The translations under genes and the position numbers were made by a program. The notes under the pieces were generated by a model. The model made no database searches and had not been told where the DNA came from. It worked only from the letters and a program-made list of their open reading frames with translations. A stretch of DNA of 64,000 bases from Planctomycetota bacterium. Lineage in GTDB: Bacteria > Planctomycetota > UBA11346. Location: the NCBI GenBank assembly GCA_038231435.1, contig JBBRLJ010000014.1:50010-114009 (forward strand), read 5' to 3'. Shown piece by piece: positions 32,314-48,389 of this stretch (position 1 is the stretch's first letter; each line of letters begins with the position of its first letter).

Positions 32314-32745
32314 TCAAAGCCTCTCCGGTAGTCCCGCCCCCGTCCTCCCCGCCACCACCACCAACCCCCTCTCCATCAACATCTGCAGATACATCGTCAT
32401 CAGCACTCTCGCCTCATGGAACGACAGCCGGTGCTCCTGAGCCAGCCAATCGACCAGCGACTCCACCGTCGCCACGCCATCCACCTTCCGCCAGACCTCG
32501 AGTCCGAGTCCGTCCAGGCGGTAGGACTTGGTGCGCCGCAGCTTCAGCAGCGAGGCCAGCGGCCTGAGGACCGGGCCGTAGCTCAGCGGCACGGTGAGTG
32601 TCGCGGCATCCTGCAGTTCGACTGCCTCGACGCGCTGGTTGCGCACCGGGATGGCTGCGAGGCGCTCGGCGTATGAGAGATCAGCGGCCTTCGGCGCGCC
32701 ACGCTTCCTCGCCAGGATCGGGGGCGAGGGGTCAGCCGACGACAT
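32314..32745 (-). CDS. Stand-alone PqqD-family / RiPP recognition element (RRE) protein
   Basis: P.RN..V, then RTKSYRLDGLGLEVWRKVDGVATVESLVDWLAQEH.L...EA.....YLQMLMERGLV, typical of the PqqD winged-helix fold. Confidence 0.8.
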   Translation of the reverse strand: MSSADPSPPILARKRGAPKAADLSYAERLAAIPVRNQRVEAVELQDAATLTVPLSYGPVLRPLASLLKLRRTKSYRLDGLGLEVWRKVDGVATVESLVDWLAQEHRLSFHEARVLMTMYLQMLMERGLVVVAGRTGAGLPERL

Positions 32746-33640
32746 CGTCGGGCTCCAGGCGTGGATGCTTGGGTGGTCCCACCTGCTCGATCGCGTAGAT
32801 ACGGCCCTCTGTCGGATCGTGCCACATCCAGGCGTCGCCGGGCCACCAGGCGCCGGTGAGCATTTCCATCCGGCGTTCGCCACGGCGTTCGAAAGCCGTA
32901 CGCACGCCGCGCAGGCCACGGAACTCGACCGGTTGCGACGACATCACCCGCGAGCGCGCGCGGGAGAGCAGGCGACGATGCAGGCCCGCCAGGTCGAGCC
33001 CAGCGAGCACCGCGCGATCGAGGCCGATGCGGCGGGCAGTGAGATGCAGATCCTTAGCGGTCTCGAAGGTGATCGCCACGTTCGCCGGTTCGGGCGAGAT
33101 CGCCTCGAATGCGAAGGGCTCTGGCAGCTGGAGCGATACTCCGAACAGCTCGTGGCGCCTCGGCCAGGCGTGATTGGGGCGGAACGATTCCAGGAGCGGC
33201 AACAGGGTCGAGGCGGCGAACGCCTCGTCATGCTCGGGAAAGATCCACTGCAGCAGCGTGCGCGTAGAGTGCTGGTAGAGCGAGGCGTAGGCGGGCAGCC
33301 CGGGCCGGTGCCAGGCGAAGAGGAACTGCCCGACGACGCTGGTGCTCAACGCGGCGAAGACCGAGGCGTCCGCGGGCGCGGCCTTCGCCAGGAAGCGGCG
33401 ATGCACCTCGTCGAGGATGCGTGGCTGGTCCGGGGTCTGGGGCACGGTCCGCCACACCAGCTGGCCGCGCGGACGCACGCGCTCGTAGAACTGGAACTGG
33501 CCCTCATCGTTCGCGAAGTGATGGCCGGTGATCTCCCACCAGAGGGGCAGCGTGAACGAGAATCCCCGCCACGACAGCCTGCGGATGCGCTCGATGTACG
33601 GCGGCACGAGCGTCGCGCCTGCCGGCGGATCAGCCGCCAC
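32732..33640 (-). CDS. Hypothetical cytoplasmic protein of the membrane-transport operon
   Basis: Overlaps both neighbours. Two similar segments (SWRGFSFTLPLWW; ELFGVSLQLPEPF). GTG start tentative. Confidence 0.65.
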   Translation of the reverse strand: MAADPPAGATLVPPYIERIRRLSWRGFSFTLPLWWEITGHHFANDEGQFQFYERVRPRGQLVWRTVPQTPDQPRILDEVHRRFLAKAAPADASVFAALSTSVVGQFLFAWHRPGLPAYASLYQHSTRTLLQWIFPEHDEAFAASTLLPLLESFRPNHAWPRRHELFGVSLQLPEPFAFEAISPEPANVAITFETAKDLHLTARRIGLDRAVLAGLDLAGLHRRLLSRARSRVMSSQPVEFRGLRGVRTAFERRGERRMEMLTGAWWPGDAWMWHDPTEGRIYAIEQVGPPKHPRLEPDDVVG

Positions 33641-46023: not shown

Positions 46024-46274
46024 GGGCCGCCGCCGGGCCGCCTCGGTACACCGATCTCCGTCCCGACCCCATCGGCGCTCGTGGTCGCACCCTGATCATC
46101 GATCCGTGACACCGCGACCTCCGCAAGGGCTTGGGGCTGCTGACGCTGAGTTGAACGACGGGCCGTCGAAGGCGTGACATGGTGGGTGGTTGCGCCAGGG
46201 CACAACAGGTTTGGACGGCCGTGGAGCGACGCTTGGACACCGCGTCCATCTCACCCGTTGCGCGCGGTCATCCA

Positions 46275-48389
46275 TCAACCACCGGTGAAGCCGGTGTAGC
46301 CGGGGGCGCCGGTTATCAGCCAATGGAGGAATGCCCCCACCGTGAGCAGGGCGCCGCACATGATCTCTCCCAGGATCAGGCCGAGGAACAGCGGCTTACA
46401 GGTCCGGTAGCCGCTGGCGCCCCCGAAGCGCACGATCGACTCCTTCAGGCACCACCCGAGCAGGAAGGAAAACCACAGGAACTTGCACGGCCAGGTATCC
46501 CAGATCAGGAAGATGATCGGGTGCAGCCAGAAGCCGGGGTAGCGGAAGCGCACCAGCACCAGGGCCAGCACCCCGGCCATGCCGAATCCCATCCACGACA
46601 GCTGCTTCCCGTGACCGACGTTCTCGCCGAGCAGGCCGAGCTTCGCCAAGCCGTGGGCCGCCGACGAGGAATCGAAGCGGCCCGTGTCCGCCAGGGTACC
46701 CAATCCGCGCGTCGCCTGGTCGATGGTCGAGGGCAATGTCGATTCCAGGACGTGGAAATTGTCGCGCTTGCCCCCGTAGGCGTAGGTGGTGTAGGTCTGG
46801 GCCGCGAAACCGAGCACCGCCGCGAGCGCCATAGCGCCGAGCCCGGCGGCGACCAGGCCGCCGACCCGCGTGCCGGTGTTCTCAGCGACCTTGAGCCCAT
46901 TGGCGACGAACGGCATCATGCACACACGGGTGTCGAAGTTGATCACGCTGCCGAGCCAGTAGATCATCACCAGGCACGACGGGCCGAGCGCGGGGAAACC
47001 CATGATGTTCGCCAGCACCATGCCCGAGTCGAACTCGGCCTGCATGAACGGCACGCCGGTCTCGCAGATGATGCGCGTGACGACCAGGAAGAACATCTGT
47101 ACCGCCAGCACGTACACCACCGCGATCATCCAATCGAGTCCGAACCCCCACCACAACACCAGGGTCAGGCCCGCGGACGCGGCCAAGAAAACTCGCGCCG
47201 CCCATACACCCTGGTTGTCGCCCTCATCGCTCGCGCGCCGCGCGCGCAAGGCCCGCGCCATCATCGAACGGTAATAGGTTCGTCCGGTATAGACCAGGAT
47301 GAGCGCGTACGCGACATAGGCTCCGGCCACGATGCTCTTGCAGTCGACGTTGCTCATCGGCTTGCCGGTAGCCGCGTAGACCTGGACCGAGACCAGCGCG
47401 AACCACAGCAGGTTGGTGCCGAAACTGAAACTGATCTCGGACGGGATGAAATAGGCGATGCCGATGATCATGAACTGCGTCCAGCCACGCAGGTTCAGGT
47501 CGACGTTCTTCAGCACCGGGAATAGCTGACTGAAATCGTCGCCGACGTAGAACGCCGACGAGATCCACGGGAACTTGCCGTGCGTGAGGATGGCCAGGTA
47601 GTTGATCAGGTAGAATATGAACGGCGGCGCCGCGCCCATCCAGAACAGCCGCGATCGGAACACCTCCGGGATGCGGCCATCCGCCTTCGGGATCATGGCG
47701 CTGAACACCGTCGCCAACGGATAGGCCAGCTGCTCGTGGCGCGACCACTGGCGATGCACGAGCAGTGCCAGCGCGGACATCGACAGCGCAAGGCAGCCGA
47801 TCAGCGGTCCCCAGTACGCCATGATCGGCAGCCAGGCGCGCCATGGCGCCTGGGCCACGCTCAGCACGCCGTCGCCGACCGGGATGCCGGTCTCGAAATC
47901 ACCGTACACCTTCTGGTAGGACGGGTCTGCCTGATCGTGGGCGAGCGGGAACAGCCGGGATGGCAGATATTCGAGGGTCTGGCGCGCGATCCAATCGGCA
48001 TGGGCGGGCTCGGCGAGCCACGGCCGGATCAGGTAGACATGGAAGGTGCGGTAGAAGCCGTAGCCCGGGAGCCAGGCCGCGCACAGCATCATCACCAGCA
48101 CCACGGTCAACTCGCCCGGTTCCAACCGCAGCCGCGACCACAGCCGACCGGCGAGCGGATTCCAGACCAGAGCGAGCACGATGATGGCCGCCATCGGGAA
48201 GATCGGCAGATGATTGCCGACCATTGGTGGCGCCTGCACCGTGTTGTTGGTGAAGTCCGCGAGCAGCGAGATGGTGGCCACGCCCAGCGCGCCTAGAGCC
48301 ACCGATCGCCAGGTCACCGAACGGGCGCGCGCGGACGCGGCCGGTGGCGGCTGGTCCGGGATGCCGTCGGGGATCTGCGTGGTCGCCAT
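46275..48389 (-). CDS. Second DUF6785/DUF6784-like polytopic membrane protein (tandem paralog)
   Basis: Collinear with 43771-45981 (VGNHLP, HRQWSRHEQLAYP, RIICETGVPF, HPIIFL, VRFGG..YR..KPLFLGLILGE). Confidence 0.78.
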   Translation of the reverse strand: MATTQIPDGIPDQPPPAASARARSVTWRSVALGALGVATISLLADFTNNTVQAPPMVGNHLPIFPMAAIIVLALVWNPLAGRLWSRLRLEPGELTVVLVMMLCAAWLPGYGFYRTFHVYLIRPWLAEPAHADWIARQTLEYLPSRLFPLAHDQADPSYQKVYGDFETGIPVGDGVLSVAQAPWRAWLPIMAYWGPLIGCLALSMSALALLVHRQWSRHEQLAYPLATVFSAMIPKADGRIPEVFRSRLFWMGAAPPFIFYLINYLAILTHGKFPWISSAFYVGDDFSQLFPVLKNVDLNLRGWTQFMIIGIAYFIPSEISFSFGTNLLWFALVSVQVYAATGKPMSNVDCKSIVAGAYVAYALILVYTGRTYYRSMMARALRARRASDEGDNQGVWAARVFLAASAGLTLVLWWGFGLDWMIAVVYVLAVQMFFLVVTRIICETGVPFMQAEFDSGMVLANIMGFPALGPSCLVMIYWLGSVINFDTRVCMMPFVANGLKVAENTGTRVGGLVAAGLGAMALAAVLGFAAQTYTTYAYGGKRDNFHVLESTLPSTIDQATRGLGTLADTGRFDSSSAAHGLAKLGLLGENVGHGKQLSWMGFGMAGVLALVLVRFRYPGFWLHPIIFLIWDTWPCKFLWFSFLLGWCLKESIVRFGGASGYRTCKPLFLGLILGEIMCGALLTVGAFLHWLITGAPGYTGFTGG

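Follow-up and report, generated by a model that had tools for sequence, protein, structure and literature searches.

The DNA analysed here (the window) is a stretch of 64,000 nucleotides (nt) from contig C14 of a Planctomycetota genome (G000, 87.6% complete), in which positions 32314–48389 are filled by nine co-oriented open reading frames (ORFs) on the minus strand, named g1 (top coordinate) to g9. These nine genes are a real, conserved unit. They encode two FtsX-type permeases with two LolD/MacB-type ATPases, two DUF6785 proteins and a divergent OPT-family protein for which an OPT fold is predicted, a soluble protein and a PqqD-fold protein. We tentatively propose that the whole system is an ATP-energised inner-membrane importer that takes up peptide-like cargo and whose DUF6785 carriers are exchangeable, a reading to which we give a little less than an even chance.

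The nine genes form a conserved unit

Eight of the genes, g2 to g9, are tightly chained. Neighbours are separated by 4 nt (g2–g3) or 5 nt (g6–g7), or overlap by 4 nt (g3–g4), 8 nt (g4–g5 and g5–g6), 11 nt (g7–g8) or 14 nt (g8–g9), and g1 lies upstream of a 293-nt gap that holds no convincing ORF. These coordinates and junction lengths bear out an earlier interpretation made from the DNA letters alone (the sequence-only reading), which had described nine co-oriented genes, eight of them closely chained. Its DUF6785-like, FtsX and PqqD labels agree with a Pfam scan, which assigns DUF6785 and DUF6784 to g1 and g2, FtsX to g3 and g5, ABC_tran to g4 and g7, and PqqD to g9, and finds no family for g6 or g8. 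A scan for promoters and terminators returned no promoters and four terminator-like sites, neither count exceeding that in shuffled sequence. The genes are as follows (lengths in amino acids, aa; TM, transmembrane; RRE, RiPP recognition element, where RiPP stands for ribosomally synthesised and post-translationally modified peptide):

46275..48389, minus strand: g1, DUF6785+DUF6784 protein, predicted OPT/YSL-fold carrier paralogue, 704 aa (PF20581 3e-73, PF20580)
43771..45981, minus strand: g2, DUF6785+DUF6784 protein, predicted OPT/YSL-fold carrier, 736 aa; putative variable, multi-copy subunit (Pfam, AF2, Foldseek, VIA)
42201..43766, minus strand: g3, small MacB/FtsX-type permease, 521 aa, 4 TM (PF02687 5e-16, hydropathy)
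41425..42204, minus strand: g4, LolD/MacB-type ABC ATPase, 259 aa (ABC_tran, intact motifs)
36453..41432, minus strand: g5, giant FtsX permease, 1659 aa (FtsX Pfam, AF2, Foldseek, VIA)
34472..36460, minus strand: g6, divergent OPT-family protein, 662 aa; putative conserved core subunit (HHalign, adjacency to g5)
33630..34466, minus strand: g7, second LolD/MacB-type ABC ATPase, 278 aa (ABC_tran, intact motifs)
32732..33640, minus strand: g8, soluble protein, 302 aa, GTG start at 33640 (ORF call; fusions to g9 elsewhere)
32314..32745, minus strand: g9, PqqD/RRE-fold protein with N-terminal extension, 143 aa (PF05402 7e-8)

To examine conservation, GTDB was scanned with an alignment of g6; of the relatives found, at least 597, the analysis took the 80 best loci. 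By their titles they come from Planctomycetota, Verrucomicrobiota (including Kiritimatiellia and Lentisphaeria), Polyangia and other delta groups, and Fibrobacterota. In 73 of the 74 loci with enough upstream DNA, g5 lies immediately before g6; in the sole exception a DUF6785 gene sits between the two. All 26 loci that span 20 kb or more contain g5 and an ATPase (two ATPases in 21), and g8 is found in 23, g9 in 23, g3 in 20 and DUF6785 in 17. Gene order is thus conserved, as the neighbourhood check proposed in the sequence-only reading called for, and because the gene set is shared across several phyla, chance linkage is excluded. Clustering of all proteins called in these 80 loci and 24 others revealed no further common partner, the other large clusters being wrong-strand calls. 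By the same clustering, the genes that flank the unit in the window, dnaB (48595–50271) and downstream dioxygenase/AraC genes, are outside the conserved set.

Co-occurrence of four components was measured in a single set of 201 Planctomycetota genomes. Genes for g6 and for DUF6785 (over cut-off) are each present in 30 genomes, together in 29. The C-terminal domain of g5, used as a marker, occurs in 31, exactly the union of the two sets (about 15%), so that DUF6785 is never found without g5 (30/30). The g9 profile matches below 1e-15 in 27 genomes, every one DUF6785-positive, with weaker matches in 35 more; the three remaining DUF6785-positive genomes have g8–g9 fusions. The positive genomes span many families, though as kin they are non-independent data points. 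Outside the phylum, five of five genomes checked with Myxococcota, delta or Fibrobacterota labels have DUF6785, some on another contig.

One relative, G100, has a tandem DUF6785 pair arranged as g1–g2, with a gap of 282 nt (locus L163). It was considered as a g6-free exception, the profile having found no g6 there, but its operon runs off the end of a contig after g5, with g8–g9 resuming at the start of another, which makes an assembly gap likely. The same genome has extra DUF6785–g5 pairs or g5 copies outside its main operon (L162, L269, L270), suggesting cognate receptor–carrier pairs. In four other loci (L234, L235, L237, L238) the cassette contains or adjoins a gene for a small TPR protein, which may be a lineage-specific subunit.

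Giant permease g5 carries a probable pseudo-peptidase outer domain

The layout of g5 comprises a signal peptide, a pseudo-peptidase ectodomain, beta domains, extra TM segments, a MacB module and a cytoplasmic C-terminal domain. Three regions are referred to below:

39477..41360, minus strand: residues ~25–652, PA-M28 aminopeptidase fold with a long helical insert (profile, Foldseek, VIA)
38877..39467, minus strand: residues 656–852, all-beta region (strands in AF2 model)
36456..36959, minus strand: residues 1492–1659, conserved cytoplasmic domain, system-specific marker (alignment; in 31/201 genomes)

A profile built from 68 ectodomain sequences matches the PA-aminopeptidase 2ek8 at 3e-23, transferrin receptor at 4e-8, nicastrin at 1e-5 and nicalin at 0.003. 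The AF2 model of the ectodomain (pLDDT 90.9, pTM 0.92) matches 2ek8 in Foldseek at 6.5e-17 and, by VIA, aligns with 1rtq over 251 residues (Z 23.2; root-mean-square deviation, rmsd, 2.9) and with the glycosylphosphatidylinositol (GPI) transamidase chains 7w72_A and 7wld_G (Z 17.5 and 17.0). An active M28 aminopeptidase was considered and rejected: the fold is present, but the catalytic His, bridging Asp and Glu-Glu pair are absent. Aligned through 2ek8, the His position is N254 in g5, the bridging Asp is R269, the general-base Glu is H301 and the ligand Glu is H302, the last His ligand having no confident mapping. Across the 68 homologues the His is kept in 6, the bridging Asp in 7, the general-base Glu in 7 and the second Glu in none. 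By this alignment the outer domain appears to be a pseudo-peptidase family-wide. With the catalytic residues lost, the "processing" role that the sequence-only reading had allowed for is unlikely to fall to this domain.

The FtsX domain scores over cut-off in 20 of 20 g5 homologues, and the best PDB sequence matches of g5 (YtrF, LolF, LolC and MacB) are confined to this part. The all-beta region matches no PDB entry under 0.07; CarboxypepD_reg was detected in 3 of 60 members (best E 0.022), a weak lead to carboxypeptidase-regulatory-like sandwiches. For the C-terminal domain, which gave no PDB match under 0.5 and no Atlas match, the fold is unassigned.

Both OPT-fold carrier types appear to lack the canonical aspartate pair

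The AF2 model of g2 (pLDDT 90.1) matches barley YS1 in Foldseek (7wst/7wsr, E 4e-9), the only two matches under 0.001. VIA aligns 549 residues of the model with 7wsr (Z 23.3, rmsd 3.8), the next match having a Z of 5.7. On the strength of this model, DUF6785 is predicted to have the OPT/Yellow-Stripe fold. The fold of DUF6785 and the 900-aa outer domain of g5 were both overlooked in the sequence-only reading, whose domain list was to that extent incomplete. Its OPT-like label for g6 is borne out: many g6 homologues carry PF03169, although g6 itself has no Pfam match, and HHalign assigns probabilities of 94.7% to the alignment of g6 with canonical OPTs, 96.8% to DUF6785 with canonical OPTs and 93.9% to g6 with DUF6785. 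When g6 and DUF6785 profiles were compared directly with PDB sequences, there was no match; the link runs through structure and through canonical bacterial OPTs, whose profile aligns to YS1 at 3e-43.

Barley YS1 is described, in the sections of its published account relied on here, as a dimeric proton-coupled elevator importer that requires Asp446, Asp490 and Asp494 (PMC9691689). Our comparison covered D490 and D494, both in TM9. At these two columns, Asp is present in 27/31 and 31/31 canonical OPTs and in 0/16 g6 and 0/32 DUF6785 sequences, suggesting that both OPT-fold types have lost the canonical TM9 pair for proton coupling.

The two types also differ in how freely they vary. Judged by median identity in the same 31 loci (54% for g6, 31% for g2), g6 is the conserved protein and DUF6785 the variable one; g1 and g2 are 45% identical. 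One core with extra carriers is found in G000 (one g5, one g6, three DUF6785) and in G066 (one, one, at least seven), and some other genomes have several cores. Insertions are also seen: g6 homologues in L234, L235 and L236 have inserts of 150–400 aa at one loop (near residue 550), that of L234 looking beta-propeller-like by eye, and in several DUF6785 homologues an early loop is extended by long helical or beta inserts. Full canonical OPT genes, counted by eye among non-independent kin, occur in 3 of 30 DUF6785-positive genomes versus about 63 of 171 others, and so are seemingly rarer where the system is present.

The second permease and the ATPases are of the LolD/MacB type

PF02687 is over cut-off in g3 as in g5, and several g3 homologues are just 212–254 aa long, without an outer domain. 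Both ATPases have intact Walker A, signature, Walker B and H-loop motifs; g7 is 55% identical to g4, and their top NCBIfam models are LolD, DevA, MacB and FtsE. The sequence-only reading had called them LolD ATPases. The type, LolD/MacB, holds; as a family name LolD does not, both proteins falling below every curated cut-off shown (LolD model, 218 versus 307.75 bits). The lolCE model gives 56 bits for g3 and 9 for g5 against a cut-off of 362; on C1 of the source genome a better lolCE match lies elsewhere (78.9 bits), also under cut-off. LolCDE was rejected as an identity on these scores. A MacAB-TolC pump was likewise rejected, no adaptor or outer-membrane exit gene recurring in the 104 clustered loci, where linked genes were searched.

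The RRE protein behaves like a fixed accessory of the system

The PqqD fold of g9 is seen in profile matches to 9x90, 3g2b and 5v1u. Its neighbour g8 has no TM segment, no PDB profile match and no Pfam family shared among 39 members; Atlas gave leads only at 0.82 (Alr1449, DUF3805, CdiI), which may hint at a PsbP/Mog1-like fold. In eight loci g8 and g9 form a single ORF (L073, L094, L105, L128, L219, L220, L235, L272). In the 87.6%-complete source genome g9 is the sole PqqD match, and among the maturase classes searched (SPASM, YcaO, lasso B2) none is over cut-off. No linked maturase or precursor recurs in the clustered loci, in which ORFs of 60 aa and more were called. An RRE-dependent RiPP cluster was rejected on these grounds, the RRE fold notwithstanding. 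The sequence-only reading had remarked, as something unusual, on an RRE without a RiPP maturase. The observation stands, but it poses no puzzle of missing RiPP genes: g9 acts like a fixed accessory of the system. In the sections of the RRE-Finder paper cited here, many discrete RRE-model matches are reported without RiPP enzymes (PMC7470986), and the passages of a 2025 RRE paper retrieved with our search terms do not mention the context of this system (PMC12710340).

Among the nine next-closest RRE loci, four follow a canonical OPT gene, and in three of these an M20 peptidase comes next; three are HEAT/kinase operons and two are neither. No RiPP enzyme adjoins the RRE in the OPT–RRE–M20 loci (L224, L225, L228) or in L226, which lacks the M20 gene, and the OPTs of L224 and L225 are about 974 aa long, with large inserts. 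The HEAT/kinase loci (L221, L227, L229) are a recurrent operon of a HEAT-repeat protein, a PqqD-like RRE and an ATP-cone/uridine-kinase-like protein, an apparent non-RiPP use of the RRE.

Proposed mechanism and alternatives

From the gene linkage, folds and residue losses reported above we infer the following physical and functional steps, together with their direction and cargo. In the periplasm, the PA-M28 domain of g5 would capture peptide-like cargo (peptides, or conjugates such as glyco- or muropeptides). Permeases g5 and g3 may pair as a LolCE-like heterodimer driven by g4 and g7. The path itself would be the OPT fold, because type VII motors, the class to which MacB belongs, carry no cargo across the membrane and the gene set holds no adaptor or exit duct; the parts of a review cited here state that motors of the MacB type perform no transport across the inner membrane (PMC5985334). 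As the fixed partner of g5, g6 would dimerise with DUF6785, and the ATP stroke would load or drive the elevator in place of proton symport. The DUF6785 paralogues may be exchangeable specificity subunits on one shared core, an idea that follows from their copy excess and strict dependence on that core, and g8–g9 may serve as a cytoplasmic acceptor or regulator. In its full form, a type VII mechanotransducer with a pseudo-peptidase receptor directly drives a g6:DUF6785 heterodimer elevator without proton coupling, DUF6785 is swapped per cargo and the cargo is passed to the cytoplasmic RRE module; we consider this combination possible, though on the doubtful side. Import across the inner membrane is somewhat probable, and, given import, peptide-like cargo is likely. 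The "one multi-subunit machine" of the sequence-only reading holds at the level of genes (adjacency, co-occurrence, g8–g9 fusions), and its physical assembly is a step that we infer. A complex prediction for g6 and the g5 tail with g9 as partner scored 0.00 twice, which speaks neither for nor against such an assembly.

The choice of a peptide-like cargo rests on the aminopeptidase, OPT and RRE folds, on the OPT–RRE–M20 operons and on two divergent copies of the system (L231, L232), in which an M55 D-aminopeptidase gene lies between g6 and DUF6785 and a GH27/31-like (GH, glycoside hydrolase) gene follows; L232 has three DUF6785 genes in tandem. The "peptide handling" of the sequence-only reading thereby finds moderate support, in the fold of the outer domain, the OPT fold and the sister RREs beside OPT and M20 genes.

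Several observations weigh against the proposed importer. The direction of transport is taken from OPT relatives alone, and type VII systems are read, in the parts of the review cited here, as mechanotransducers acting outside the cytoplasm, not as importers (PMC5985334). The aspartate mapping relies on remote profile alignments at 13–17% identity, and DUF6785 has an Asp-x-Arg-Glu motif of its own two turns earlier (D in 24/32, E in 18/32), with which it could still couple protons. Homologues of g5 keep other conserved histidines (H515 in 47/68), and a remodelled metal site is possible. G100 carries DUF6785–g5 pairs without an adjacent g6, and lone DUF6785 copies have no consistent catabolic neighbours, peptidases not being enriched beside them either. 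As for the RRE, no g9-type RRE lies within 1.5 kb in any of the 30 top-ranked canonical OPT loci, a single family accounts for three of the four OPT–RRE loci, and three further sister RREs lie in the unrelated HEAT/kinase operons.

Could the system instead handle proteins? Dead M28 domains operate in gamma-secretase, the BOS complex and GPI transamidase, where they have recognition roles. By analogy, the dead M28 domain of g5 would recognise envelope proteins or cleaved peptides, and the motor would extract or retro-translocate them as part of quality control or recycling. The matches of the ectodomain to nicastrin, nicalin and the GPI transamidase chains are in keeping with this, as are the TPR membrane proteins that flank the four loci named above and the lone DUF6785 genes, which occur among housekeeping genes as often as among catabolic ones. 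We consider it unlikely: active bacterial PA-aminopeptidases outscore the eukaryotic pseudo-enzymes by far, just 31 of the 201 genomes have the system, and variable carriers in multiple copies better suit nutrient uptake. The same importer architecture could also take up oligosaccharides from polysaccharide breakdown. The third DUF6785 paralogue of the source genome (G000:C1:16457-18475; L004, L005), which lacks the core genes, has a GntR-LacI regulator and GH92, GH42 and GH78-like genes as neighbours; other DUF6785 copies adjoin GH5, GH20, GH39, GH123 or sulfatase genes, and the two divergent system loci end in the GH27/31-like genes. Yet sugar genes are not enriched: a carbohydrate-type gene lies within two genes of 17/39 lone DUF6785 loci and 13/38 control regions from the same genomes (Fisher p 0.49), with categories hand-assigned after the lone-copy results had been seen, control regions hand-picked, and 2 of 41 test loci (those containing g5) and 2 of 40 controls (one too short, one matching DUF6785) dropped. 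The receptor and acceptor folds are, moreover, peptide-binding folds, and we hold a sugar cargo to be quite unlikely. Also seen were URO-D-family genes beside lone DUF6785 in 5/39 loci (L141, L144, L147, L172, L175) versus 2/38 controls, and a run of prepilin-type genes near the third paralogue.

Export would reverse the direction: a leader-bearing peptide or protein would be bound by the cytoplasmic RRE, passed outward through the OPT fold and then lifted off the membrane by the type VII motor. The RRE fold of g9 fits such a role, and so do outgoing substrates, on which type VII systems act according to the same parts of the review (PMC5985334). It is improbable, since the 80 GTDB and 24 other loci show no recurring gene for a precursor, maturase, adaptor or outer-membrane exit, the source genome has its one PqqD and none of the maturases searched for, and discrete RRE-model matches are often reported without RiPP enzymes, as noted above. 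The view of the sequence-only reading that the system is neither Lol nor a known RiPP exporter is likewise upheld by the missed Lol cut-offs and by the maturase search. A further alternative limits the motor to sensing or gating, the type VII module merely switching OPT carriers whose transport is ion-driven, or supposes two separate, co-regulated machines. FtsEX, which switches hydrolases, offers an analogy. FtsEX is treated as a signalling type VII system in the literature passages used here, and the acidic Asp-x-Arg-Glu motif is retained in DUF6785, but the canonical proton-coupling pair is lost in both OPT-fold types and DUF6785 never occurs without g5. We give this little credence and continue to prefer the ATP-energised importer.

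Other features of the window

Three further features lie outside the unit. The dnaB gene, co-oriented and 205 nt upstream of g1, encodes a DnaB whose N-terminal domain carries an insert of about 100 aa. At 27849–30078, nrdR is followed by a gene for an ATP-cone protein of ~470–550 aa without other Pfam domain, which may be a degenerate relative of ribonucleotide reductase. At 18606–24640 lie two large genes in the same orientation (763 and 1248 aa) with no Pfam match or a weak one (DUF5060).

Comparison with known systems

Each component belongs to a known fold family; their combination is apparently undescribed. Among the open-access papers that our searches listed (main texts) we found no description of the system or of DUF6785/DUF6784 (PF20581/PF20580/IPR046712), and no characterised system joining these parts, as the sequence-only reading had supposed. 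New here are the matched co-occurrence of four components in 201 genomes, the apparent loss of the proton-coupling aspartates, the link of the RRE to plain OPT–peptidase operons and the negative sugar-context test. To our knowledge no type VII machine imports, and described OPT carriers are proton-run and act alone. If correct, the proposed importer would have no precedent known to us, either as a type VII ABC system that imports or as an OPT driven by ATP, and a type VII motor joined to OPT carriers would represent a new means of energising membrane transport. DUF6785 and DUF6784 would thereby gain functions and an RRE a non-RiPP job, and the system would supply a bacterial dead M28 domain that acts as a receptor, a design otherwise familiar from eukaryotic complexes. 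The organisms that carry the system, in Planctomycetota, Verrucomicrobiota, Myxococcota and Fibrobacterota, are mostly uncultured, and their routes of polymer-fragment uptake are poorly known. Among the records seen, a single one, Verrucomicrobia bacterium LW23 (L074), is not a metagenome-assembled genome.

Like the type VII ABC systems (LolCDE, MacAB-TolC, FtsEX, YbbAP-TesA, YtrEF), the system has two distinct 4-TM MacB-type permeases and LolD-type ATPases. It differs in the 900-aa pseudo-peptidase ectodomain, extra TM segments and unique cytoplasmic tail of g5 and in its obligate OPT-fold partners, and no adaptor, TolC, LolA or hydrolase gene belongs to the conserved set. With the OPT/YSL transporters (PF03169; barley YS1) it shares the predicted whole-chain fold of g2 and, at profile level, the homology that links g6 and DUF6785 with bacterial OPTs. 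YS1 is described in the sections cited above as a stand-alone proton symporter (PMC9691689), whereas here two divergent OPT-fold types, both apparently missing the TM9 Asp pair, always accompany an ABC motor. The OPT–RRE–M20 operons (L224, L225, L228; L226 without M20) place an RRE from the nearest clade outside the system directly after an OPT gene, but this OPT is canonical and there is neither an ABC motor nor g8. The M28 pseudo-peptidase domains of transferrin receptor, nicastrin, nicalin and the GPI transamidase subunit resemble g5 in having the PA-M28 fold without catalytic ligands and in acting in a membrane complex, which for g5 is presumed; unlike them, g5 is bacterial, fused to an ABC permease and nearer to active bacterial PA-aminopeptidases such as 2ek8. 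In energy-coupling factor (ECF) transporters, one ATPase core, EcfAA'T, serves several scattered, divergent substrate components, the S-components. The folds are unrelated, with a type VII motor and OPT carriers here, and some genomes have several cores; the likeness, known here from gene counts, is that scattered DUF6785 paralogues co-occur with, and are in copy excess over, a core that they may share.

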